A stretch of DNA of 64,000 bases, taken from NCBI GenBank assembly GCA_009726095.1, contig WLMZ01000001.1, positions 270 through 64,269 on the forward strand, read 5' to 3'. The notes under the pieces were generated by a model. That model was given only the letters and a program-made list of their open reading frames with translations, was not told where the DNA came from and did no database searches. Position numbers and translations under genes: made by a program. The stretch comes from Actinomycetota bacterium. Its GTDB lineage: Bacteria; Actinomycetota; Acidimicrobiia; Acidimicrobiales; Ilumatobacteraceae. Each line of letters begins with the position of its first letter. The stretch's first letter is position 1. Shown one piece after another: positions 1,866 through 51,303 of the stretch.

Positions 1866-3728
1866 CGAGGTACTGGTGGCGTTCGTGGTCGTGGTGGTGG
1901 TGGCGCCGTTCGTGCCGACGCCGGGCGGCGAAGTGACCACGGGTTGAGTCACCGTGGTGAGCGGTATGTCGGGCGTGGCACCAGTACCGGCCACCACATT
2001 CAGCACCGCCGCCTGATGGAACGTGCCGTCGGCCGACACGACGTCGAGCGTTACCGTCCATGCGCCTGCCACGGCGAACTGGATACCCGGGTCCATGGGG
2101 AGATAGGCAATCCCTGCGCTGCTGAGGGCCACAGATTCGACCGCCGACCTGGCAGTGCTGTTCAGCGGCGGGTCGAAACGAATGGTGATCTGGCTGATGG
2201 AGGACCTCGGCTTCACCACCTCCACGAGCATCTCGTTACGTCCGACCGCCGCCGGATCGATCGACAGCCGGAGATCGAGTTTCTTGGTCGAGTCGACGAA
2301 GCGCTGTTGATAGGCGAACTTGTTCGACGAGACGCCCGATGCCGACAGGTTGCCGGGCGGAGAGGCGAGCATCCATGCGGTGATTCCCAACACCACCACA
2401 CCGATGATGGCCTCCATGCCGATAGCCCGTCGGAGCTTGCCGGCCATCGGCGCAGACATGACATCGGCACGGTTCAAACGGGCCTGGATGAACTGGCGGG
2501 TCGCCACGCCGACGAACACCATCGCTGCAACCACAATCACCTTGAGCACCAGCAATCTGCCGTGATCGGTTCCGAGCAGGTGACCACTGTCGAGCCGATA
2601 GAGCTGAAAGCAGCCGGTTGCCAACACCGTGATCCAGGCAGGGGTCACCATGCGGCCGAACCCGCGGACCGCATGCACGAGGTCGTCGTCACCGGGGCCG
2701 GCAAGCACCACACGGGCCAACAGCAACAGCCCGCCCAGCCACACGGCCATCGCAACTGCGTGCAACATGCCAGCGCCGTAGCCGAGCAACTCAAGGTCGC
2801 CGCCGGCACGCGAGAACCCCATGGTGGCCACTGCCAGACCGGGAATGGCCAGCGCCGGCAACTGCGTGGCCGGGTCGATGCAGCGTTCGGGACGAATGAC
2901 CACCCAGGCTGACGCGGCCACCAGGAGCAACCGTGCCAGGGCAGCCTTGCCGGGTGTGGTGTGGGCGAGCTCGAACCAGTTGGTCGGGCCGAGCGAGCTC
3001 ATGAAGCTGTTGCCGGTGGCCTGGGCCGCCAGGCACGCCACGGTCACCACGGTGCCGAGCAGCGCAGCGAGCCACGCATAGCGCAAGAAGCGGATGGTGA
3101 GGATGTACTCCACACCCTCGGGCCATGCAACCGCGATCAGCGCCAACGAGCCAAACAGGGCGGCAAGCGCGAGGGTGGCAGCGATGCGGGCAAGTCCCAG
3201 GGCGCCGCCGACGTTGGAGCTCGCCGACGATGCCGACGGCGTGGCCGACGGCGTTGGTACCACGTCGGTCGACACGGTGCCATCAGCCCCGGGGGCGGCG
3301 GTGGGGAGGGTCGACGTGGTGGCCGCTGTGTCTTGCTGGATGTCGAAGGAGAACGTGCCGCTGCTCGTGCCGGCGTCGACCAGACCCTGCACCTTCCAAC
3401 CCACCACGCACGATCCACGTGGTAGCGGTTTGCTGCTGAGGTCGACGACGAGGCTCTGGAGGTCCTCGGTGGTGCGCGCCCCCGGCTGCGGCACAGCATT
3501 TCCGTTGCAGGTGATGACGACCGACGATGCCGACCCGATGGTCTGATCAAACGTCACCGTGATCGAGGTGGGCGACGTCGCCACAACCGACCCATCAGTG
3601 GGCACCGACGACACCACCGAAACCGGCGCCGCCCACGCCGGTTGCGCGCCAAGGAGCGGCCAGACGGCCAGCACGGCAACGGCCGCGAACAGGCCGCCAC
3701 AACGAAAAAGGGGAGTACTGCGCTTCAT
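1857..3728 (-). CDS. copper resistance protein, CopC-CopD fusion with C-terminal extracytoplasmic domain
   Basis: Signal peptide, then a CopC-like domain (VSSVPTDGSVVATSPTSITVTFDQ) followed by a polytopic CopD-like membrane region. Start could be ATG 3728 or TTG 3740. Confidence 0.75.
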   Translation of the reverse strand: MKRSTPLFRCGGLFAAVAVLAVWPLLGAQPAWAAPVSVVSSVPTDGSVVATSPTSITVTFDQTIGSASSVVITCNGNAVPQPGARTTEDLQSLVVDLSSKPLPRGSCVVGWKVQGLVDAGTSSGTFSFDIQQDTAATTSTLPTAAPGADGTVSTDVVPTPSATPSASSASSNVGGALGLARIAATLALAALFGSLALIAVAWPEGVEYILTIRFLRYAWLAALLGTVVTVACLAAQATGNSFMSSLGPTNWFELAHTTPGKAALARLLLVAASAWVVIRPERCIDPATQLPALAIPGLAVATMGFSRAGGDLELLGYGAGMLHAVAMAVWLGGLLLLARVVLAGPGDDDLVHAVRGFGRMVTPAWITVLATGCFQLYRLDSGHLLGTDHGRLLVLKVIVVAAMVFVGVATRQFIQARLNRADVMSAPMAGKLRRAIGMEAIIGVVVLGITAWMLASPPGNLSASGVSSNKFAYQQRFVDSTKKLDLRLSIDPAAVGRNEMLVEVVKPRSSISQITIRFDPPLNSTARSAVESVALSSAGIAYLPMDPGIQFAVAGAWTVTLDVVSADGTFHQAAVLNVVAGTGATPDIPLTTVTQPVVTSPPGVGTNGATTTTTTNATSTSSG

Positions 3729-3796: not shown

Positions 3797-4375
3797 TCAG
3801 CCGAGCTCGGCGATGAAGGCATCGATCAGCGGCGCTCCGTCGACTCCGGTTTCGGTGAGCACCGATACACCGATGCTGCCCTCGAAGACCGCGATCGCAT
3901 CGGTTGTCTCGAATGCCCCGACCGCGCGCTTACCGGTGTGCCCCTGCGGGGTGCTCACTGTTTGGCCCCCCGCCACGCCCTCGAACCCCAGATACGCATC
4001 GATGGCCGGTTGGGTCCACGGGCCGTTGAGCTGCAGCAGGTACACAGCGGCATCGGGCCCGCCCGTGGTGGACTGCAGGTAGCCGGCCCGATACGAAACC
4101 AGCAGGCCCGCCAACGCCGGATATCCCGACGGGTTGAGTTCCTCGGTGAGGTCCATCGCAGCCCACTGATAGCCCGCTGGCGCAGCGAACGCTGCAGACA
4201 GGTTGCCGGTGATCTGGGTGGGTGGCGGCGCTTCGGTCGTCACCGGGGCCGACCCGAGGGTGCCGGGCGACGCCGCCGTCGTGGCTGACGGCGCAGCGCC
4301 CGAGCACGAAGTGAGCAGCAACAGCGCCGACGTGGCCACGGTGGCCGTGATGTAGAACCTCGATCGGTGCGCCAT
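3797..4375 (-). CDS. hypothetical lipoprotein
   Basis: MAHRSRFYITATVATSALLLLTSCSG has a lipobox (LTSC). I recognise no family. Same strand and directly upstream of copCD. Confidence 0.55.
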   Translation of the reverse strand: MAHRSRFYITATVATSALLLLTSCSGAAPSATTAASPGTLGSAPVTTEAPPPTQITGNLSAAFAAPAGYQWAAMDLTEELNPSGYPALAGLLVSYRAGYLQSTTGGPDAAVYLLQLNGPWTQPAIDAYLGFEGVAGGQTVSTPQGHTGKRAVGAFETTDAIAVFEGSIGVSVLTETGVDGAPLIDAFIAELG

Positions 4376-10551: not shown

Positions 10552-12006
10552 GCGCTTACGTCGCTTCAGGCGGTACGAGAGCTGGGTGTCGTCCCACGTG
10601 CTCCCCACCCGGCGTCCGGCGGCCACTGCGGCGACCGCCAGCAACACCGCCACCAGCGGAGCGATCCACGTATTACCCATCAGGCGCGACAGCCCGATCG
10701 GGATGGCAACGACGATGAACCCAAGGGCAACCGGTACGAGATCGATGAGCAACGAGCTGCGCGCCCGACGCTCGTCGGGGATGGTGGCAAGCGCCGTCTG
10801 GCGGGCGCTCGCATCGGCGCTCCAGCGTGGCAGGCGCCAGACCAGCGTTGCCGCCACGGCCAACACGATCTGGTTGGCGGCACCGGCAACTGCGAGCAAC
10901 GCAGCACCGACGAGCGCAAACAGCGGCAGCAGCTGCAGAACCTTTTCGACGCCGCGGCGCTGCAACAACTTGGTGGTGGCAAAGGTCTGCACTGCCCAAC
11001 ACAACACGATACCGATGAGCGCTGTCCCGGCGTACAGGGTCTGGAACGAGCCGGCGGTCGTGAAGTGCTGACGAGCGATATCGAGGAAGCCGAACTCGAC
11101 GATGGCGCCGGCGGAAACGACGGCGAGCGACATGATCAGCATCCAGCGGAACGCAGGCAGTGCCCCGATGAACGAGACGGTCTCCTTCAGCGACTCACGC
11201 GTGGTCTCCGAGCGACCATGGCCGGCCGAGGCCGTTGCGTCGCGCAGGCGGCGGGGCAGGAAAATCGCCACACCGACACACACCACCGGAGGCAGCACCA
11301 GCAGCCAGCCGAGCGACGAATCGCTCGAGCCCAGAATGGATGGCGCGATCGTGGCGATACCGAGGCCAGAGACCTGGCCGACGAACAACCACCGCGAGAT
11401 CGAGGGGAAGACCGTGACGCCCTGCCCCGCGGTGAACACGTCTGCGGCCAGGGCCCAGATCATCAGCGGCAGCAGGTAGTTCATCTGATCGGCAAGCAGC
11501 CACGCCAGACCGAAGGTGACGGTGGTGGGGGCATGGGAGACAAGCAGCACCAGCGCCACCCCATACGCCGCTGCGTAGCCGAGGCACAAGCCGACCAGCA
11601 TGGGTAGACGGGCGACGCGATCGATGTATTTTGCCTGCAGGAGCGCAATCCCCAACAGCCCGAGGGCTGCCAGCGGCCATACCACCGCAAGCGCTGCGGT
11701 ACCGCTGTGGCTCACCACCTGCGACGCACCGACCGCTTCGGTGATGGCACCCGACACCGCGATGCCGGCGAACGACAGTGACAGCGCCCGGGCCCAGCGG
11801 CGCTTGGGCTCGCCGGTATCCACTTCTGGAGCGCTGCGCGCCTGAGCGCCGGCAGCCCTGATGAGGTCGTCCAACGCATCGGAGCGCTCGGCCTCGGTCT
11901 CGGCAGTGGAGTCGGTCGAGGGCTCGTCGAGCCGGCTCGCCCGGCGCCGACCGGCGCCAAGACTGCCGATCAGATCGTCGAGTCCGTCGCTCGTGCCATC
12001 AGGCAT
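10543..12006 (-). CDS. polytopic membrane protein, MFS / TLC (ATP:ADP antiporter)-like
   Basis: About 11-12 hydrophobic spans. The segment LLADQMNYLLPLMIWALAADVF resembles the FWxxaNe region of the TLC/AAA family. Its ATG 12006 overlaps the upstream stop (ATGCCTGA). Confidence 0.45.
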   Translation of the reverse strand: MPDGTSDGLDDLIGSLGAGRRRASRLDEPSTDSTAETEAERSDALDDLIRAAGAQARSAPEVDTGEPKRRWARALSLSFAGIAVSGAITEAVGASQVVSHSGTAALAVVWPLAALGLLGIALLQAKYIDRVARLPMLVGLCLGYAAAYGVALVLLVSHAPTTVTFGLAWLLADQMNYLLPLMIWALAADVFTAGQGVTVFPSISRWLFVGQVSGLGIATIAPSILGSSDSSLGWLLVLPPVVCVGVAIFLPRRLRDATASAGHGRSETTRESLKETVSFIGALPAFRWMLIMSLAVVSAGAIVEFGFLDIARQHFTTAGSFQTLYAGTALIGIVLCWAVQTFATTKLLQRRGVEKVLQLLPLFALVGAALLAVAGAANQIVLAVAATLVWRLPRWSADASARQTALATIPDERRARSSLLIDLVPVALGFIVVAIPIGLSRLMGNTWIAPLVAVLLAVAAVAAGRRVGSTWDDTQLSYRLKRRKRLG

Positions 12007-21822: not shown

Positions 21823-21867
21823 TGAGGGTACGCGTCATGCGCGAGGAACCACCGATCCACCTCCCGA

Positions 21868-21908
21868 CTACCGGCTACGGCTACCGGCTACCGGCTACCG
21901 GCTACCGA
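21868..21908. repeat. heptanucleotide microsatellite (CTACCGG)n, about 6 units (one unit 6 nt, last unit CTACCGA)
   Basis: Read directly. It lies in the divergent intergenic region, 46 nt from the rlmI-like start and 173 nt upstream of the pilA ATG. Confidence 0.9.
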
Positions 21909-22080
21909 CTCAGGGAGCTCGCCCACCCGGGGTCTGCGCCATGCCACAAAAGATTTGCAGAACTTTTCAGAAGATTTCTCAAGGTTCACCGACAACTGCC
22001 GAAACCTACTCTGCACCGGGTTGGCAAGGATTGCTCCGGTGGGTTCGTGGACAGAACAATTGCGGGAGGAACGCACCATC

Positions 22081-22446
22081 ATGGAAAACCACAACGAAGC
22101 AACAAAGACCAACAAGCACGACAAGGGCTTCACCCTCGTCGAACTGCTGATCGTGATCGTGATTCTGGGCATCTTGGCCACCGTGACGGTGTTCGCTGTG
22201 CGAGGCATCACCGACAAGGGCCAGACCAGTGCCTGTGCAGCCGACAAAAAGACGATGGAAGTCGCCGTCGAGTCGTACTTCGCTCAGAACGGTGGCACGA
22301 CCATCCCGACCGCCACCCCGGCAACGGCAACCGTGGGCACCACTGCCTCGGAGACGCTCAAGCTCGCAGGCTTCCTGCGTGACGTCTCGGACAAGTACAC
22401 CGCCAACGCAAACGGCAGCCTGACCGCCGTTCTACCTTGCACCTGA
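22081..22446 (+). CDS. pilA: type IV pilin (prepilin-type N-terminal cleavage/methylation domain)
   Basis: MENHNEATKTNKHDKG|FTLVELLIVIVILGILA is a class III signal peptide. SD GGGAGGA precedes the ATG. 121 aa. Confidence 0.9.
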   Translation: MENHNEATKTNKHDKGFTLVELLIVIVILGILATVTVFAVRGITDKGQTSACAADKKTMEVAVESYFAQNGGTTIPTATPATATVGTTASETLKLAGFLRDVSDKYTANANGSLTAVLPCT

Positions 22447-43298: not shown

Positions 43299-43317
43299 GG
43301 CCACAGGGAGCTCCGCC

Positions 43318-43887
43318 ATGACAAGCCTGCGCGACCGACCCAGCACCGCCCTGTTGGTCGTAGACGTACAGCGCGATGTCGTGGCCAACGCCCACAACCG
43401 CGACGCGGTCATCGCCAACATCGAGACGTTGCTCAATCGCGCCCGCGCCGGGCAGGTGCCGGTGATCTGGGTGCAGCATGCCGATGACAACCTGGCGGTG
43501 GGCAGCGAGGGCTGGCAGTACGTGGCCGAGTTGCAGCGCCAGGAGACCGAGCCACTGGTGCACAAGGCCTACGGCGACTCGTTCGAGGACACCACGCTCG
43601 AGGCCGAACTGGCGCAGCGAGGTGTCGGCCGGGTCGTCGTCACCGGCGCGCAGACCGACGCCTGCATACGCGCCACACTGCACGGCGCGTTCGTCCGCGG
43701 CTACGACACCATTCTGGTCAGCGATGCACACACGACGGACGACCTCTCCGACTACGGCCTACCCACGCCTGACAAGGTGATCGTGCACACCAACATGTAC
43801 TGGACCTGGCAGGCTGGCCCCGCCCGCATCGCCAGCGTGGTCGCCACCGCTGATGTCAACTTCTGTGCGACCATGGAGGAAGCATGA
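43318..43887 (+). CDS. isochorismatase-family cysteine hydrolase
   Basis: ALLVVDVQ...VVVTGAQTDACIRAT. Confidence 0.8.
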   Translation: MTSLRDRPSTALLVVDVQRDVVANAHNRDAVIANIETLLNRARAGQVPVIWVQHADDNLAVGSEGWQYVAELQRQETEPLVHKAYGDSFEDTTLEAELAQRGVGRVVVTGAQTDACIRATLHGAFVRGYDTILVSDAHTTDDLSDYGLPTPDKVIVHTNMYWTWQAGPARIASVVATADVNFCATMEEA

Positions 43888-44282
43888 ATCATCTCGACGC
43901 CATTGATCCGGAACTGTTCAACAACCCGTTCGCCACCCTCACCACGCTCGGCGCAGGTGGCGATCCGCAGATGACCGCCGTGTGGTTCCGCGTCGAGGAC
44001 GGCAAGATTCTGATCTCTGCAACGGCGCGGCGGCGCAAGGTGAAGAACCTCATGGCCGACCCGCGGTGCTCGCTGTTCATCTTCCATCCGACAACCGGCG
44101 ACTACTGCGTCGAACTCCGCGGCACCGCCCAGGTTGTCGACGACGCGGACTACGCGATCGCCGACCTGATCAGCCCCCGCTACAACGCCGACTTCCGTGG
44201 CTTCGACAGCCCGACAGACCGGCGGATGGGGATCATCGTCACACCCGAACGCGTCATCGTCACCGACGTGCGCGCCCACTGA
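43884..44282 (+). CDS. PPOX-class (likely F420-dependent) oxidoreductase
   Basis: ATLTTLGAGGDPQMTAVWF...KVKNLMADPRCSL. Confidence 0.7.
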   Translation: MNHLDAIDPELFNNPFATLTTLGAGGDPQMTAVWFRVEDGKILISATARRRKVKNLMADPRCSLFIFHPTTGDYCVELRGTAQVVDDADYAIADLISPRYNADFRGFDSPTDRRMGIIVTPERVIVTDVRAH

Positions 44283-44313
44283 CACCAGCGCCAGCAACGT
44301 GGGTAGACCAGCC

Positions 44314-44604
44314 ATGGAGCTCGAGTTCACGGACGAACTGTGGTTCTGGAGGGGCCCAGCGCCCTGGTACTTCATCACCGTGCCAGATGCAGAGTGCCGA
44401 ATCCTCACCGAGGAGTGGCGGTTCGCCAGCTACGGCTGGGGCATGATCCCCGTCACCGCCCGGATCGGTTGCAGCACATGGGCCACCTCACTGTTCCCAA
44501 AGGACGGCCGCTACATCCTTCCCGTGAAGGCAGCAGTCCGACGCGCCGAGCAATTGGACGAGGGTGACGTCCCGCTCGTCAGCATGACGATCCGCTACCC
44601 CTGA
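44314..44604 (+). CDS. DUF1905 domain protein
   Basis: WFWRGPAPWYFITVP...GWGMIPVTARIG...TSLFPKDGRYILPVK. Confidence 0.7.
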   Translation: MELEFTDELWFWRGPAPWYFITVPDAECRILTEEWRFASYGWGMIPVTARIGCSTWATSLFPKDGRYILPVKAAVRRAEQLDEGDVPLVSMTIRYP

Positions 44605-44697
44605 CCCGCAACCCAGTGAACTTACAGTAGATGTGAGCCGTCAAGGGCACGGATCAACTGCCAGAACGGGGTGACGGCGCAGGGCAGACCGGGGCTG

Positions 44698-45348
44698 CTA
44701 CAGCGACTGGTAGGTGGCGAGCGCCTCGCGTACCGATGCCTGGGCCACACCGACCTCATCGGCAACTGCGGCCAGCCACTGGGGCCGCACGATGGCCGCC
44801 ACCGTGATGGGTTCGTCGAGCCCGGAGTGCTCCATCGCCATGCGCACGAACAGCGTGGCGTAGTCGGGGGGCCGCAGATCGCGGGACAGCTCGAACAGGG
44901 CGTACGGATCGGGTGGCGTGCTGCGCGGCTCGAGCGAGAGGAAGCTCGATGACGTGGGCGTCACTGCCCCGCCAGCGAGGCCGGGGCCATCGGCGAGTAC
45001 CGCGCCGCGCACCGAACCCGCGCGGGCTCCGGCCAGCTGCAGCGCGATGTAGGCACCGAGACCGCGGCCTACCACGGTGACCTCGCCGAGAGCGGCCAGC
45101 GCCGTATCAGCATCGGCCAGCAGCATCTCGGCGCTGTACCCACCACCGCGCGGCACGGTGCTGTGCCCGTGGCCGGTGAAATCGAGTGCGGTCACGGGGC
45201 CGGGCCACTCGTTGCACCAGGCAGGCTCGGTGGCGGGGGCGTGCTCGCCGAGCCCGTGCAACAACAGCAACGGGCGACCCTCACCCTCACGCAGGTAGTG
45301 CAGCGCCAGGGAGACCTTGCCGTGCAGCAGCATGGAGACCCGGCTCAT
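44698..45348 (-). CDS. alpha/beta-hydrolase-fold protein lacking the nucleophile serine
   Basis: LLLLHGLGEH is present, but the elbow reads GRGLG instead of GxSxG. The start overlaps the upstream stop (ATGA). Confidence 0.6.
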   Translation of the reverse strand: MSRVSMLLHGKVSLALHYLREGEGRPLLLLHGLGEHAPATEPAWCNEWPGPVTALDFTGHGHSTVPRGGGYSAEMLLADADTALAALGEVTVVGRGLGAYIALQLAGARAGSVRGAVLADGPGLAGGAVTPTSSSFLSLEPRSTPPDPYALFELSRDLRPPDYATLFVRMAMEHSGLDEPITVAAIVRPQWLAAVADEVGVAQASVREALATYQSL

Positions 45349-46229
45349 GATGCACCACCGAGGAAATCGAGAATCATCGATGACACCAGATGTGGCTGTT
45401 CGATGTGCACGAAGTGACCGACGTTGTCGAGCACCTCGCACCGTCCGCCGTCGGGCAGGTACTTGGCCACGTGGCGGGGCAGCGTGCCCCATCCCATCTC
45501 CTCGAGCTCGCTGCCGAGGATGCCGAAGAACGGCATGGGCAGGCCCGGCAGCCGGGTGATGGTCCACTCGGGGCGCCACGGCCCAAAACCACCGAAGCGC
45601 ATGGCGGGGTCGATCTTCCATCGCCAGCCATCGGCATCATGACGTGCACCGACGGTGACGAGATGGCACAGCCACTCGTGTGAGAGTCGAGGGTTCATCC
45701 GGCCGCGGCGGCGGGCGAGATCGTCGAGCGTTCCGGGCTTGCGCGATGCCTGGCTGACCTTGCGGCGGTCGTCGAGCCAGCGTTGCACGTCGCCGGCCAT
45801 CATCCGGGTGCGCTCGTGATCGGAGACGTCGGGAATACGGCGACGGTAAGGGATGCCATCCATGTTGATGAGATGGCTGAAGCGATACGGCTGGGCATCG
45901 GCGAGCTGGATCATCAGTGCCCCGCCCTTGGAGTGCCCGATCACAGGCGCCGGACGGGAGGTGACCGAGTCCATCACGGCCATCGCATCGCGCATGTCGC
46001 CGTCCCACGAATACAGCTCGGTGTGATCGCTGTCGCCGTGACCGCGTTGGTCCCAGCTGACAACGCGCCAACCCGCCCGTGCAAGCAACGGCGCGAACAC
46101 GTCGTAGGTGCGAGCGAAGTCGAAGCCGCCGTGCACGAGGAACATCGGGTCAGCGGTTTCAGCGCCCCACTCATGCACAGCGATGTTGACCTGTCCGGCA
46201 GCGATGGAATAGTCGCGATCCGGGGCCAT
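45345..46229 (-). CDS. alpha/beta hydrolase
   Basis: FLVHGGFD, WDQRGHGDS, elbow IGHSKGG. Confidence 0.8.
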   Translation of the reverse strand: MAPDRDYSIAAGQVNIAVHEWGAETADPMFLVHGGFDFARTYDVFAPLLARAGWRVVSWDQRGHGDSDHTELYSWDGDMRDAMAVMDSVTSRPAPVIGHSKGGALMIQLADAQPYRFSHLINMDGIPYRRRIPDVSDHERTRMMAGDVQRWLDDRRKVSQASRKPGTLDDLARRRGRMNPRLSHEWLCHLVTVGARHDADGWRWKIDPAMRFGGFGPWRPEWTITRLPGLPMPFFGILGSELEEMGWGTLPRHVAKYLPDGGRCEVLDNVGHFVHIEQPHLVSSMILDFLGGAS

Positions 46230-46292
46230 CGCTCCCGGGTAGGCGCCGGGTACGGGAGCGGGGGTTGAGGCAGGCTGCACCTTGACGAATCT

Positions 46293-46691
46293 ATGCGTAG
46301 CATGGCGCGGATGAGTTATCGCGCACGCCTTGCCCTGGTCATCGGACTGGTCTCGTCTGCTGCATTGGTAGCGGCGTGCAGCAGCGACAGTTCGGCCAAC
46401 GACACCCTGCCGCCCATCTCCACCACGTCGACGACCACCACCATGCCGGCCACCACCACCACCATCCCGCAGGTGTACGTGGTACGGAAGGGCGACTCGT
46501 TGTTCAGCATCGCCAAGAAGTTCGGCATCAGCGCGGCCGATCTCGCGGCCTTCAACAACATCACCGACCCCGACAAAATCCAGGCCGGTCAAAAACTGAA
46601 CCTGCCCCAACAGGGCGAGACGGTCACGCTGCCCCCAACGACGGCACCCACCACACCAGTCACCACCGCACCAGTCACCACCTCTGGCTGA
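46293..46691 (+). CDS. LysM-domain lipoprotein
   Basis: Lipobox LVAAC. LysM segment YVVRKGDSLFSIAKKFGISAADLAAFNNI...GQKLNLP. Confidence 0.85.
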   Translation: MRSMARMSYRARLALVIGLVSSAALVAACSSDSSANDTLPPISTTSTTTTMPATTTTIPQVYVVRKGDSLFSIAKKFGISAADLAAFNNITDPDKIQAGQKLNLPQQGETVTLPPTTAPTTPVTTAPVTTSG

Positions 46692-46774
46692 CGCCGGACC
46701 AGTTCTGAAACGGGCCGATGCTGGACCGCTGCGGTGACCTGATCCGATCCGGGATGCGGTCCTAGACTTCGTTC

Positions 46775-47476
46775 ATGACATCGTTCTGGCCCACACAGGA
46801 ACACTGGTCCGTCGCGATCCCGCTGCACACTCCTCACCCCCGTCTGCCGATTCTCAACGCAACGGGCTTCGTGCAGTTGCCTGCCGCAGATTTCGTGGTG
46901 CCGCCGAGCGAGTACGAGTCGCTCGAGTACCTCGATTGGAAGAGCGGTGGTGACACCAACTTCGCGCCGCTCGCATCAGCCGACGGCGAGCTGGATTGTC
47001 GCGGCTTCTGGGACAAGGGCAAGACCGACAAGGACGCGCTCTGGACCTCGAATGCCGACCACGCGCCCACGCTGAAGCACTACGTGTCGGGCGTCGGCGC
47101 CAACTTCGGCCGGGTTCGCATCATCAAGTTGCAGCCCCAAGATCGCGAGACAGCGATTCGCAGTATCCACCGCGACGACAACAACCGCTTCAACCCCGAC
47201 AACGAGGGCTGGGTCGTACGGTCGTGGGTAGAGCTCAGCGACAATCCCGACAGCTACATGCTGCTGATGGACAACGGGCCCGATGGACTCCCCGATCCGT
47301 CCACCGAGGTGCGCGTACCGCTTTCGCGTGGCGCCCGTTTCGTCGTCGACACCCAACGCCTCTGGCACGTGGTGGTACACCCCGGCACCTCGGCGCGCCA
47401 TGCCCTCATCACCAGCTTCGAAAGCGGCCCGGTGCTGGAGGAGTGGATCGATGGCCAGATCGGTGCCCGGGCCTGA
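46775..47476 (+). CDS. hypothetical protein, possibly aspartyl/asparaginyl beta-hydroxylase-like cupin
   Basis: HRD (HxD) ... FVVDTQRLWHVVVH pattern. The stop TGA lies inside the first 13-bp repeat unit. Confidence 0.4.
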   Translation: MTSFWPTQEHWSVAIPLHTPHPRLPILNATGFVQLPAADFVVPPSEYESLEYLDWKSGGDTNFAPLASADGELDCRGFWDKGKTDKDALWTSNADHAPTLKHYVSGVGANFGRVRIIKLQPQDRETAIRSIHRDDNNRFNPDNEGWVVRSWVELSDNPDSYMLLMDNGPDGLPDPSTEVRVPLSRGARFVVDTQRLWHVVVHPGTSARHALITSFESGPVLEEWIDGQIGARA

Positions 47477-47546
47477 TCATTGGGCCTGATCATTGGGCCT
47501 GTTCACCGGGCCTGATCATCGGGCCTGATCATCGGGCCTGATCACA
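47469..47546. repeat. 13-bp tandem repeat array, 6 units of GGGCCTGATCAT(C/T) (third unit GGGCCTGTTCACC)
   Basis: Read directly. Units start at 47469, 47482, 47495, 47508, 47521 and 47534. Confidence 0.95.
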
Positions 47547-47702
47547 GACATTGACTGCGCGAGGGCTTTGATGTGTGCCGGGGCGCTGCACCACCGACGA
47601 CCTTTCCTCTACCGAGCCGGCCCTTCGTACTTCTTGTCCAATCGTTCGTCTAGTTAGCTGGCTCTCTCGGGCACGGTGTGTCAGGGGAGGGGAGACGTTG
47701 GG

Positions 47703-48569
47703 ATGAACCGTCAGAGGTTGCGCACAAAGAGAAACGCCGTGATTGCAACAGTCGTTGCGCTGGCGATCGCTGCTGGAACGTGGGCCCTGGTCAGCGCTTC
47801 CGATTCGACCAGTAAGCGCGAAGGGGCCACCTACAACGTCATCAGCAAGAAGGTCAACTACGGATCGAAGATCGTGATCAGGAACGACGGCCCGTACCTG
47901 CTGAGGGTCACCGATATGCAGAACGGCGCGGGAGTGGTGTACCTCCAAAGTTGCACCATGGAGACCTACTGGCCCAAAGTGGAGGAGGAGTTTTGGTGGG
48001 TAGGCCCGACTGTCAACGAGTATTTGTTCCCGCCCACCCCGGCGTCGAGGAACTTCCTCTTCGACACCTATGCCGCTGACCCGACAGCGTGCCAACACGA
48101 ATGGATTGGGAAGGTCAAGGGCCAATTTACTGACCTCGACCTTCAGATCGAGGCGTGCGTGCCGCTCAGAGGCCATTTGAGTTTTGCTGGCACCGCAAGC
48201 GAGGCAGACAAAACTAGTGCTGCGAACACCTACGGATGTCACCTGCAAAACAAGCACTACGACTATGACGGTTCCACGCAATCCCACGCGTGGGGACTGC
48301 AGGTTGATCGGGTGAAGGCGCGGTCGAGCGCCGCAGGGGTGCATGCCATCTCGAAAGGCCTCCAGAGCATCACCGACAACTACACCGGCAGAAGCGAGGT
48401 CTGGGAGTTCTCAGCTGGTTATGGACAAGGTTTACAGTTCACTGTGGTTGCAAGCGAGCACAAGCGTATGGACGAGGACAACCCCTATGTCTACACGCTG
48501 CAAAACTTTGGGCCGCCCAAGTGCCTTGACGCTGCATATTCTTCTGCACATCTCGATTGCTCCGAGTAG
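47703..48569 (+). CDS. orphan secreted protein (288 aa, six Cys), low-GC gene
   Basis: SD GGGGAGGGGA before the ATG. Signal peptide NAVIATVVALAIAAGTWALVSA|SD. No family recognised. Composition is atypical for the window. Confidence 0.6.
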   Translation: MNRQRLRTKRNAVIATVVALAIAAGTWALVSASDSTSKREGATYNVISKKVNYGSKIVIRNDGPYLLRVTDMQNGAGVVYLQSCTMETYWPKVEEEFWWVGPTVNEYLFPPTPASRNFLFDTYAADPTACQHEWIGKVKGQFTDLDLQIEACVPLRGHLSFAGTASEADKTSAANTYGCHLQNKHYDYDGSTQSHAWGLQVDRVKARSSAAGVHAISKGLQSITDNYTGRSEVWEFSAGYGQGLQFTVVASEHKRMDEDNPYVYTLQNFGPPKCLDAAYSSAHLDCSE

Positions 48570-48721
48570 AACCGTGCGGAGCGACCAGCCACACACGAAC
48601 AACGCTCCCGGCTCCCGCACACACGGTCGAAGCCCTTTCGAACAACCATTTTCGGACCTTCGAGCCAACTTTTCGCCTGACAACCGGCCTGTCAGCACCT
48701 GCGCACCGAATAACGCACAGT

Positions 48722-48786
48722 CCTCCTGATCACCGGGCCTGATCATCGGGCCTGATCATCGGGCCTGATCATCGGGCCTGATCAGG
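48722..48786. repeat. second array of the same 13-bp repeat, same orientation (1 degenerate + 4 units)
   Basis: CCTCCTGATCACC, then GGGCCTGATCATC x3, then GGGCCTGATCAGG. The last unit contains the minus-strand stop of the phosphatase gene. Confidence 0.95.
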
Positions 48787-49336
48787 GTGCGACGAGCGCA
48801 GCGATCAGGTCGCGCTGTGCCCCTGCCTCGGGTCCAGCCATCGGTCGATGCGCTGCCACCAGAGCGAGTGCGTCGGCGGCACCCGATCCCAGAGCCATCA
48901 GCAAACCCGCAGCGATCGTGCCCGCACGGCCGATGCCGGCGCCGCAATGCACCAACAACGTGTCCCCACGTTCGACCCGCTGGCACAACGACTCGAGCAG
49001 CTCGGTTGCGGCGTCCAGGTGCGGTGCGCCGAGGTCGGGAATGGGGAACCACACCGCCCGCAGCGGCGCCTGCGTTCGCAGCCACTCGACGTAGTGCGGA
49101 TACCGGTCCACCAGCTCACTGCGTTGGTTCAGGCACACAACCGCGGACGCACCAACGGCCGCCAGCGCAGCGTCGGGGTCGGGCCCCACAAAGTGTTTGC
49201 CGCACAGCCACAACCGGCCACCGTTCGGCAACGGCACGGCGTCGGCTCCGCCGTGTCGCGCACGGTCGTTGTACCAGCCATCCATCGGGACCTGGGGGCG
49301 ACCCGCCGCCGCCGACGAGGGATCGACGACGCTCAT
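48782..49336 (-). CDS. dual-specificity / Cys-based protein phosphatase
   Basis: P-loop VHCGAGIGRAGT (HCx5R). The ATG overlaps the meaA stop (ATGA). Confidence 0.8.
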   Translation of the reverse strand: MSVVDPSSAAAGRPQVPMDGWYNDRARHGGADAVPLPNGGRLWLCGKHFVGPDPDAALAAVGASAVVCLNQRSELVDRYPHYVEWLRTQAPLRAVWFPIPDLGAPHLDAATELLESLCQRVERGDTLLVHCGAGIGRAGTIAAGLLMALGSGAADALALVAAHRPMAGPEAGAQRDLIAALVAP

Positions 49337-51303
49337 CCGCCGTTGCGGTGGCGCGCCGCCAGTTCGGCGATGTCACGCATGATGCTGCTGAGTTCGTAGT
49401 CCTTGGGCGTGTAGCAGCGGGCGACGCCTGCTGCGGCGAGCCGCTCCTGATCTTGCTGGGGGATGATGCCACCTACCACCACGGGGATGTCCACGCCCAG
49501 CGCAGCCAGACATGCCAGCACGTCGGGAACCAGTGCAAGGTGCGATCCGCTGAGAATGGACAGGCCAATCACATCGGGGTCCTCGTCGCGGGCCGACGCA
49601 GCGATCTGCTCGGGTGTCAGGCGGATACCGCTGTAGACCACCTCCATGCCCGCATCGCGCGCGGCCACGGCGATCTGCTCGGCGCCATTGGAATGACCAT
49701 CGAGGCCGGGCTTCGCAACCAGGAACTTCGGCGGCCCGCCGGGGATGCTGCGTACGTACTCGGCCACGGCAGCCAGCTCGCTGCTGCGACGGCCCACTGC
49801 GGCGCTCACCCCGGTGGGCGCACGGTATTCGCCGAACACGCCCCGCAGCGTGGTGGCCCACTCGCCCGTGGTGCCACCGGCACGGGCCAGGCGGATGGAC
49901 GCCAGCATGATGTTCTCGTCACCCTCAGCCGCCGCCCGCAACGCAACCAGCGCCGCCTCGACAGCCGCGTTGTCGCGATTGGCACGCCACTGCTCGACAT
50001 CGTCGATGGTCTCCTGCTCGACCGCGGGATCGACCACCAAGATGTTGCCCTCGCCACCCAACGGGCTCTCGGCTGTCTCCTTGAAGCTGTTCACGCCGAC
50101 CACCATCTGCTCGCCCGATTCAATACGACGAGTGCGCCCGGCCATGGACCGTACGAGACGACCCTTCAGCTCGTCGACGGCCTCAAACGCACCACCGAGG
50201 CCGAGCACGTCTTGGAGCTCGGCCCACGCAGCGTCGCGCAGTTCGTTGGTCTTGGCCTCGATGACGACAGAGCCCTCGAAGATGTCGTCGTACTCCAGCA
50301 GGTCGGTCTCGAAAGCGAGTACCTGTTGCATACGCAACGACCACTGCTGGTCCCACGGACGGGGAAGCCCGAGCGCCTCGTTCCATGCCGGCAGTTGCAC
50401 ACTGCGCGCCCGCGCGTCTTTTGACAACGTGACCGCAAGCATCTCGAGCACGATGCGCTGGATGTTGTTCTCGGGCTGGGCCTCGGTGAGCCCCAGGGAG
50501 TTCACCTGCACGCCGTAACGGAACCGACGAGCCTTGTCGTTGGTTACCCCGTAACGCTCGAGCCCGATGCGGTCCCACAGTTGGGTGAACGCACGCATCT
50601 TGCACGTCTCCTCGATGAACCGGATGCCAGCGTTGACGAAGAACGAGATGGAACCGAAGACCTGGGCGAACTGATCGGGCTCGACCTGGCCGCTGTCACG
50701 GACGGCATCGAGCACACCAATGGCAGTGGCGAGCGAGTATGCGATCTCCTGCACCGGCGTGGCCCCGGCCTCTTGCAGATGGTACGAGCACACGTTCATC
50801 GGGTTCCACTTCGGTGCGTGCTGCGCGCACCAGGCGACCATGTCGACGATCAACCGACGAGATGCCTCGGGTGGGAAGATGTAGGTACCGCGGCTGAGAT
50901 ATTCCTTGACGATGTCGTTCTGCGTCGTGCCGCGCAGCGCCTCGCTGGGCACGCCCTGTTCGTCGGCGTTGGCGACGTAGAGCGCCAGCAACCACGCTGC
51001 GGTGGCATTGATGGTCATCGAGGTGTTCATCTTCGCCGGAGGTATGGAGTGCAGCAGCGTGCGCATGTGGCCGAGGTGGGCCACTGGTACCCCCACCTTG
51101 CCGACCTCGCCCCTGGCCAGGGTGTCGTCCGGGTCGTAGCCGGTCTGCGTGGGGAGATCGAAGGCGATGGACAAACCGGTCTGGCCCTTGGCCAGGTTCG
51201 TGCGGTACAACTCGTTGGATGCCCCGGCTGTGGAATGGCCCGAGTAGGTGCGCATCAACCAGGGTTCATCGCGCGGCGCGGCGTCAGGCGTACTGTCGTT
51301 CAT
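49333..51303 (-). CDS. meaA: ethylmalonyl-CoA mutase (MeaA-type B12-dependent acyl-CoA mutase, fused catalytic + B12 domains)
   Basis: WLMRTYSGHSTAGASNELYRTNLAKGQTGLSIAFDLPTQTGYD, and a C-terminal B12 domain (GLDGHSNGAEQIA). 656 aa from ATG 51303. Confidence 0.85.
   Translation of the reverse strand: MNDSTPDAAPRDEPWLMRTYSGHSTAGASNELYRTNLAKGQTGLSIAFDLPTQTGYDPDDTLARGEVGKVGVPVAHLGHMRTLLHSIPPAKMNTSMTINATAAWLLALYVANADEQGVPSEALRGTTQNDIVKEYLSRGTYIFPPEASRRLIVDMVAWCAQHAPKWNPMNVCSYHLQEAGATPVQEIAYSLATAIGVLDAVRDSGQVEPDQFAQVFGSISFFVNAGIRFIEETCKMRAFTQLWDRIGLERYGVTNDKARRFRYGVQVNSLGLTEAQPENNIQRIVLEMLAVTLSKDARARSVQLPAWNEALGLPRPWDQQWSLRMQQVLAFETDLLEYDDIFEGSVVIEAKTNELRDAAWAELQDVLGLGGAFEAVDELKGRLVRSMAGRTRRIESGEQMVVGVNSFKETAESPLGGEGNILVVDPAVEQETIDDVEQWRANRDNAAVEAALVALRAAAEGDENIMLASIRLARAGGTTGEWATTLRGVFGEYRAPTGVSAAVGRRSSELAAVAEYVRSIPGGPPKFLVAKPGLDGHSNGAEQIAVAARDAGMEVVYSGIRLTPEQIAASARDEDPDVIGLSILSGSHLALVPDVLACLAALGVDIPVVVGGIIPQQDQERLAAAGVARCYTPKDYELSSIMRDIAELAARHRNGG

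Follow-up and report, generated by a model that had tools for sequence, protein, structure and literature searches.

How did a single gene come to lie inside a short tandem-repeat array that joins the ends of two convergent genes? The question is raised by a locus of the 64,000-nt window analysed here (contig WLMZ01000001.1 of assembly GCA_009726095.1, positions 270 to 64,269, forward strand), in which two arrays with a period of 13 bp, both in one orientation and with the unit GGGCCTGATCAYY, bracket about 1.18 kb of DNA (six units on the left, four plus one degenerate unit on the right). This DNA, here called the cassette, carries the open reading frame (ORF) ORF288, which encodes 288 amino acids (aa). 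The window was compared with other contigs and loci, numbered L001 to L040. We favour, as the probable explanation, a minisatellite formed from the junction of two stop codons, into which a gene unit was inserted illegitimately and from which it can be lost again by recombination between the two resulting arrays. The features of the locus are as follows.

46775-47476, plus strand: upstream conserved hypothetical gene, 233 aa; called ORF, no Pfam domain, GC content at third codon positions (GC3) 0.82
47469-47546, plus strand: left array, six units, the third degenerate; direct reading and Tandem Repeats Finder
47537-47545 and 48725-48733, plus strand: 9-nt junction string CCTGATCAC; direct reading
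47546-48724, plus strand: inserted gene unit, about 1.18 kb; absent from the 99% identical strain and the 86% relatives, lowest-GC stretch
47624-47645, plus strand: conserved upstream block TTCGTACTTCTTGTCCAATCGT; DNA alignment, about 60-80 nt before the ATG
47703-48569, plus strand: ORF288, 288 aa; N-terminal signal peptide or membrane anchor, then a beta-rich domain
48722-48786, plus strand: right array, a degenerate unit, three perfect units and a last unit ending in CAG; direct reading and Tandem Repeats Finder
48782-49336, minus strand: dual-specificity/tyrosine phosphatase gene, 184 aa; PTP/DSP domains, convergent with the upstream gene

The two 13-bp arrays and the origin of the repeat unit

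Direct reading and Tandem Repeats Finder confirm the first-pass annotation of this DNA, which had described arrays of one 13-mer in the same orientation around a low-GC insert. The program reports 5.9 copies with 90% matches at 47468-47544 and 4.6 copies with 97% matches at 48725-48784. In order, the units of the left array are GGGCCTGATCATT twice, the degenerate GGGCCTGTTCACC, GGGCCTGATCATC twice and GGGCCTGATCAC; those of the right array are the degenerate CCTCCTGATCACC (48722-48734), GGGCCTGATCATC three times and GGGCCTGATCAG. As direct repeats, the two arrays share an exact stretch of 42 nt. With zero or one mismatch, a 12-mer of the repeat occurs nowhere in the window outside the two arrays; with up to two mismatches, 29 matches are found in the window, compared with 7.0 ± 2.6 in shuffled sequences.

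Both flanking genes end within the repeats, as had been annotated. The stop codon of the upstream gene (47474-47476) lies inside unit 1 of the left array, and the last codons of this gene together with its stop (CGG GCC TGA) form the start of that unit. The stop codon of the phosphatase gene (48782-48784, minus strand) lies inside the last unit of the right array, which is closed by the Pro-stop of this gene (CCC TGA, on the plus strand TCAGGG). Because the TGATCA of the unit reads TGA on both strands and the period of 13 is not a multiple of three, three units suffice to put a stop into each of the six reading frames.

The C-termini of the upstream-gene family bear on where the unit comes from. 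Most members end in ...ARV, and the protein of the window ends in ...GARA at the same length; the 81% identical relative L040 ends with GCC CGG GTC TGA (GCCCGGGTCTGA), compared with GCC CGG GCC TGA in the window (GCCCGGGCCTGA). Judged from this comparison, CGGGCCTGA is native coding sequence, namely the conserved C-terminal R-A-stop of the upstream gene. The complete repeat unit reads as a tandemly duplicated junction of two abutting convergent stops (GCC TGA + TCA GGG), which would account for the presence of the two stop codons in the first and last units.

The array is also quasi-palindromic: by our own count, the unit and its reverse complement agree at 10 of 13 positions. As RNA, the left array is predicted to fold with -56.1 kcal/mol (z -5.8) and the right array with -49.2 kcal/mol (z -5.0) on the plus strand and -38.3 kcal/mol (z -3.0) on the minus strand, and the predicted hairpins are weaker on the minus strand. 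Owing to this quasi-palindromic character, the array probably serves as a terminator-like hairpin for both flanking genes. No Rfam family was found in 46500-49500 at E ≤ 1.

Empty and filled alleles of the locus

The geometry had been read in the first-pass annotation as insertion of foreign DNA into a pre-existing array between two genes, and this reading is supported by an empty allele, by relatives at 86% identity and by homologues of ORF288 at other loci. The empty allele, a single short contig, was found in L006, which has 1909 bp and belongs to a different sample. In L006 the upstream gene has 99% identity, and one uninterrupted array of six units joins the stop of this gene straight to the phosphatase gene, without the cassette. 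Following ...GGTCACC, the array reads GGGCCTGATCATT, GGGGGCTCTTCATC, GGGCCTGATCATC three times and GGGCCTGATCAG, and the sequence beyond it (GGTGCGACG... / GGTGCGACGAGCGCAGCGATCAGG...) is the 3' end of the phosphatase gene. Its predicted RNA fold reaches -52.3 kcal/mol (z -4.2). Against the window, 8 of 1790 bp are mismatched in the left flank (~99.5% identical) and 1 of 107 bp in the right flank. The left units differ in that L006 has one ATT unit fewer and another degenerate unit, with GGTCACC in place of GGTGCCC just 5' of the array. In total, the locus holds six units in L006 and six plus five, split, in the window.

The filled allele is also present on L001, an 80.8-kb contig from the European Nucleotide Archive (ENA), which differs from the window by 16 single-nucleotide polymorphisms (SNPs) over 20.8 kb, none of them in 43823-49750. 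As L001 carries these differences and shares the cassette exactly, the filled allele is backed by two assemblies. A freshwater 'Actinobacteria bacterium' metagenome-assembled genome (MAG) encodes a hypothetical protein with exactly the sequence of ORF288. An exact-protein look-up of the phosphatase returned the two filled contigs only, and this locus was absent from the metagenomes of the Joint Genome Institute (JGI) that were scanned.

In L007-L012, L013 and L038/L039, whose upstream gene is 86% identical, synteny is the same, and the two genes are convergent and 18-20 bp apart. Neither the array nor the cassette is present at the locus in these contigs, so the cassette is not carried by all relatives, a possibility that had been named at first pass as speaking against insertion. 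The adjacency of the two genes in these outgroups indicates that adjacency is the ancestral state and that array and cassette are both derived.

In one of the 86% relatives, L007, the 18-bp spacer between the convergent genes (10698-10723) reads CCTGATTCCTTCG CCTGATTCGTTTA. It contains two CCTGATTC motifs, 13 bp apart, which could be a decayed or an incipient 13-bp repeat, or due to chance.

The cassette as a gene unit

As a gene unit, the insert is self-contained and consists of an upstream block, the gene for a 288-aa secreted protein and a 3' untranslated stretch. No other stretch of 1175 bp in the window is as low in GC as 47547-48721 (58.0%; mean 65.5%, standard deviation 2.1). The shift in composition seen at first pass is thereby upheld, with an average of 58% instead of the 50-55% then estimated, and is partly a family trait: genes of the ORF288 family are low in GC in every host contig (gene 0.58-0.61, contig 0.64-0.67), so part of the shift is intrinsic to the protein family. 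For ORF288, GC3 is 0.716, compared with about 0.78-0.82 in neighbouring genes. The statement that it lacks the GC3 bias of its neighbours was too strong, as the order GC3 > GC1 > GC2 is kept (0.72/0.54/0.46). Its codon adaptation index of 0.543, compared with 0.666 ± 0.054, is the second-lowest of 66 ORFs; the ORF with the lowest index overlaps a real gene on the opposite strand, which leaves ORF288 the lowest among real genes.

In all four genomic contexts the gene is accompanied by a conserved block, TTCGTACTTCTnGTnCA, some 60-80 nt 5' of the ATG. BLASTN homology to L036 begins at position 47624 of the window, and DNA homology to the homologue loci covers 47624-48569 only, that is, the upstream block and ORF288. 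From this conservation, the block is probably the gene's own promoter or operator; a scan for sigma-70 consensus promoters gave no match. The rest of the cassette, ~75 nt at its left end and ~150 nt at its right, matched nothing, and the 3' flanks of the homologue loci align poorly. Regarding terminal inverted repeats, the best candidate (47562-47584/48611-48636) lies 15 and 85 nt inside the cassette ends and has a score of 22, which 38 of 1000 shuffled sequences also reached (p ~0.04).

A rare secreted protein family

In the alignment, ORF288 has a basic-hydrophobic N-terminal segment ending in SAS, followed by ~250 conserved residues. Four cysteines are invariant in the family, and the close subfamily also keeps two further C-terminal ones. 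With 9 clusters among 5.8 billion proteins, the family is very small, and a profile search of 1.84 billion representatives yielded 12 matches, 8 of them below 1e-10. Against the 70-74% identical homologues, the ratio of nonsynonymous to synonymous substitution rates (dN/dS) is 0.21-0.27 at a dS of 0.63-0.75, which identifies ORF288 as a real gene under purifying selection. With the same dS, a recent donor is not among the sampled sequences; the difference between the filled and the empty flanks is ~0.4%.

No family had been recognised for ORF288 at first pass, and the searches agree. Pfam, PHROG and NCBIfam gave nothing above threshold, and the best E of a sequence profile against the PDB was 0.2. 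The AlphaFold model is weak (predicted local distance difference test 59, predicted template modelling score 0.61), and a Foldseek search with this low-confidence model reached a best E of 0.04 against the PDB and of 0.2 against viral structures (BFVD). An actinoporin/aegerolysin-like beta-sandwich was considered and rejected, the template modelling scores of 0.2-0.4 being treated as noise.

The 70-74% homologues follow a TetR gene and precede a repeat protein and a nonribosomal peptide synthetase (L002, L004), or are located beside a divergent 769-aa gene (L036), while the ~40% subfamily is located after ychF (L003, L037). At none of the homologue loci is the 13-mer or a comparable array present, and in viral contigs neither relatives of ORF288 nor the array pattern were found. 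In L037 (1730-3807), the 40% homologue lies between ychF and a transposase pair of the IS3 family (rve + HTH_Tnp_1), the only mobile-element gene seen beside any member of the ORF288 family.

Proposed history of the locus

In the explanation that we favour, the array would have been born locally, as a hairpin-forming 13-bp minisatellite or variable-number tandem repeat (VNTR), by tandem duplication of the junction of the abutting stops. In one lineage of a freshwater Ilumatobacteraceae-like population, the 1.18-kb gene unit, as a linear or circular fragment, would then have entered one of the about ten units of the array and so divided it in two. The joining may have been illegitimate or assisted by microhomology, at a break or a stalled fork in the hairpin-prone array. 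No targeting mechanism is needed to explain why the insert lies inside the array, because the array would have been the only non-coding DNA between the genes in the ancestral arrangement. As the only dispensable DNA there, it would also have allowed the insertion to survive, each flanking gene keeping an array at its 3' end. Homologous recombination between the direct arrays would lead to precise loss of the cassette, and hence to its presence or absence among strains that are more than 99% identical.

At the left junction, GGGCCTGATCAC is followed by AGACATT, and at the right junction ...CAGTCCTCCTGATCAC is followed by CGGGCC. The string CCTGATCAC, which occurs at both, may be either microhomology used in the insertion or plain array sequence.

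Several observations weigh against this history. The empty allele is represented by one 1909-bp contig only, and the 42-nt stretch shared by the arrays could in principle have led a small-k assembler to collapse them and skip the cassette. As two direct arrays make a precise deletion easy, L006 may be either a pre-insertion or a post-excision allele, and its unit variants differ too much to decide. Among lineages of 86-99% identity, none was found that shows the array without any cassette history, and no donor was found, the nearest protein match having 74% identity. As part of the low GC belongs to the ORF288 family itself, composition alone is no proof of recent transfer. The right-hand CCTGATCAC may belong merely to a degenerate array unit. 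Finally, the terminator role is a prediction: a scan for consensus terminators gave no match, as the arrays lack a T-tract.

A less probable alternative, which we nevertheless take seriously, is that the cassette is older in the species and that L006 is derived from a filled allele by recombination between the direct arrays, so that a gene was lost rather than freshly gained. The shared 42-nt exact stretch would be enough for a RecA-dependent or slippage deletion, the L006 array (an ATT unit, a degenerate unit, ATC three times, CAG) is the product expected of a crossover between left and right arrays, and the dS of ORF288 to its nearest homologues speaks for the lack of a recent sampled donor. 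However, the left units of L006 differ from those of the window in the number of ATT units, in the degenerate unit and in GGTCACC instead of GGTGCCC, and L006 is therefore not a simple recent derivative. As the outgroups are without the cassette, an earlier insertion into the site would still be required, and gene loss would change only the polarity of the latest event.

Under the favoured history, the locus fits best among small indels of the flexible genome that have direct repeats on either side, the unusual trait being that the repeats are the halves of a stop-derived hairpin minisatellite. It looks like a gene gain or loss caught mid-course and not like a new kind of mobile element. Its value lies in a clean natural pair of filled and empty alleles, in which a compact genome has accommodated a new gene without visible mobile-element machinery and in which the two resulting arrays make the gain reversible. 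If this were general, streamlined environmental bacteria would have in hairpin-forming micro-arrays at the ends of their genes cheap 'safe harbours' where accessory genes can settle; so far, it is one well-documented locus, and the protein carried is a member of an uncharacterised secreted family that is very rare.

The repeat unit in other genomes

Two perfect units in tandem were found in 15 of 185,579 species genomes, with one array per genome, and in 6 JGI metagenome contigs. The 15 genomes comprise two of Ilumatobacteraceae, one of Microthrixaceae, two of Nonomuraea, two of Streptomyces, one each of Amycolatopsis and Nocardioides, a Streptosporangiaceae MAG, four MAGs of unclassified actinomycetes and a Rhodospirillaceae MAG. 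All of these 21 other arrays are unsplit, and the retrieved 5-15 kb show no second array in any case. About half of them begin at or just before the stop of an ORF with high GC3. As far as their translations were read, these ORFs are mutually unrelated (CYTH-like, short-chain dehydrogenase-like, a metalloprotease with HExxH), and 4 of the 10 printed ORFs have the C-terminus ...RA. Since the flanking ORFs are unrelated and this C-terminus recurs, the comparison points to independent births at similar gene ends and not to the spread of an element.

At one Streptosporangiaceae locus, 3, 5, 8 and at least 4 units were counted in different samples (L019, L029, L031, L033), and this change of unit number is VNTR behaviour. 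In L030 (~4050-4160, minus strand), GGGCCTGATCACT is repeated four times and runs directly into a second 13-bp array of three GGGCCTGAGGGCT; mutation of the unit can be followed by renewed expansion of the variant. In L018, an Ilumatobacteraceae MAG, a two-unit array is located 62 nt after a tRNA-Pro(GGG) gene (3138-3301). No compositional anomaly and no obvious downstream island were seen there, and nothing island-like was found in L018 or L027 (ORF lists for both, base composition for L018 only). In the literature, the 11-mer of the unit appears only in unrelated primers, and nothing specific was found on tandem-repeat insertion hot spots between convergent genes.

It is conceivable, though improbable, that GGGCCTGATCAYY arrays are a recurrent functional element of Actinomycetota, at once a six-frame stop, a bidirectional terminator or insulator and a reversible landing pad for single-gene cassettes, preferred because the arrays are hairpin-prone, and that the window holds the first filled example. 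This would agree with the occurrence of the 11-mer core in tandem in 15 species genomes and 6 metagenome contigs, usually from the stop of an unrelated gene. By our own estimate from base composition, ~0.04 matches are expected at random, which is the wrong null model for tandem duplications.

Still less likely, and in our view very doubtful, is that a dedicated site-specific system, integron-like or of the bridge-RNA/IS110 type, whose recombinase is encoded elsewhere and which shuttles promoter-bearing cassettes, uses the 13-mer array as its attachment site. The insert does lie precisely inside the array, CCTGATCAC occurs at both junctions, and the unit recurs in 15 genomes. The TGATCA and GGCC palindromes and the strong predicted hairpins fit as well, given that some recombinases use structured targets resembling palindromic, hairpin-forming repeats. 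Against it, and against the first-pass suggestion of a recombination target, stand a unit composed of native coding ends, its one array per genome beside unrelated genes, 0 of 21 other arrays split or near a second array, VNTR behaviour, homologous cassettes elsewhere without such a repeat, and the weakness of the terminal inverted repeat candidate. Moreover, as had been annotated, no integrase or transposase domain was found among the called genes within 10 kb on either side, all of which are ordinary (among them exonuclease VII, polyprenyl synthase, hydrolases, LysM protein, MeaA-like mutase, Leu/Phe transferase, NhaA).

That the filled allele is an assembly artefact, in which an unrelated contig was joined at the repeats, is hardly credible: the sources are metagenome assemblies and repeats are classic places of mis-joins, but, at the k = 141 that the contig name implies, the arrays (78 and 65 bp) are short enough for single k-mers to span from the unique flank into the unique cassette, two assemblies 16 SNPs apart over 20.8 kb have an identical cassette and both junctions, and the ORF of the cassette is intact, under purifying selection and equipped with a conserved upstream block of its own.

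Comparison with known systems

The copies are arranged head-to-tail and their number varies between strains, as in a VNTR or minisatellite. The mycobacterial interspersed repetitive units (MIRU-VNTR) of Supply and colleagues reportedly are intergenic repeats with units of roughly 46-100 bp. Like these, the arrays are head-to-tail intergenic repeats whose ends overlap the flanking stops and whose copy number is strain-variable; unlike these, they have a 13-bp unit, form, in the species genomes scanned, one array per genome instead of a dispersed family and are split by a gene insertion.

Repetitive extragenic palindromes and bacterial interspersed mosaic elements (REP/BIME) are extragenic palindromes that form hairpins at 3' ends and serve as insertion hot spots, in high-copy dispersed families mobilised by dedicated transposases. 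The array resembles them as palindrome-rich extragenic DNA between convergent gene ends, with stable predicted hairpins and as a site of DNA insertion. However, it is single-copy, was apparently born in place from coding ends and involves no insertion sequence (IS). It is not dispersed either, with no other copy in the 64-kb window and one array in each of the 15 genomes.

With flexible-genome islets the locus has in common a single accessory gene that is present or absent among strains more than 99% identical, an atypical composition and direct repeats on both sides. Here, instead of attachment sites or duplicated genes, the two halves of a tandem array form the direct repeats, and no tRNA, integrase or IS is nearby. 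As in integrons, a single-gene unit without a mobility gene of its own lies at a structured, repeat-bearing site; unlike integron cassettes, it has its own upstream control region and is flanked by 13-mer repeats of the chromosome. Neither an attI nor, within 10 kb, an IntI integrase was found, and no attC core (RYYYAAC/GTTRRRY) was seen at the right cassette end when read by eye, a formal attC search not being part of this.

Other candidates were rejected. An insertion sequence or miniature inverted-repeat transposable element is not supported, as there is no transposase within 10 kb and the inverted repeat is weak. Nor is an integrase island or prophage remnant supported: the tRNA genes of the window are confined to 32-35 kb, and neither a PHROG match nor relatives in viral contigs were found. 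Iteron-like binding sites, also suggested at first pass, do not fit neighbours that are housekeeping genes, with no replication gene nearby. CRISPR arrays have repeats of 24-48 bp with unique spacers of similar length; the units here are 13 bp and contiguous, and their single 1.18-kb interruption is a gene.

Neighbouring genes and minor observations

The upstream gene is widely conserved across Ilumatobacteraceae and Acidimicrobiia. It has 3199 homologues, which belong to Ilumatobacteraceae, Acidimicrobiia or Actinomycetota wherever the source gives a name. The phosphatase is called with 131 aa in L007, L008, L009 and L011 (10721-11116) and with 181 aa in L010 and L012 (10721-11266). These contigs are near-identical, and the calls suggest a frameshift or a start-site difference between strains.

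At approximately 43300-44700 (L001 5616-6902), isochorismatase, PNPOx-like and DUF1905 genes are located between the polyprenyl synthase and the hydrolases. This trio is not at that position in the 86% relatives L007-L012, which instead have an RmuC gene between an ABC transporter and a molybdopterin oxidoreductase; both are further gene-content differences of the same neighbourhood. In L008 (1-2100), four small ORFs take the place of the ABC-transporter gene of L007, L009, L010 and L012, and L011 keeps the transporter gene as well. The upstream-gene protein of L008 is identical to that of the relatives with the transporter, which makes this a strain-level replacement at another site.

Elsewhere in the window, a 7-bp tandem repeat (CCGGCTA, 6.4 copies) and an AT-rich 10-bp repeat are located at 21864-21978, ~100-200 bp 5' of a type-IV-pilin-like gene (ORF start near 22082) with the N-terminal sequence ...KGFTLVELLIVIVILGILA. 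As its period is not a multiple of three, this pilin-promoter repeat could be a phase-variation switch.

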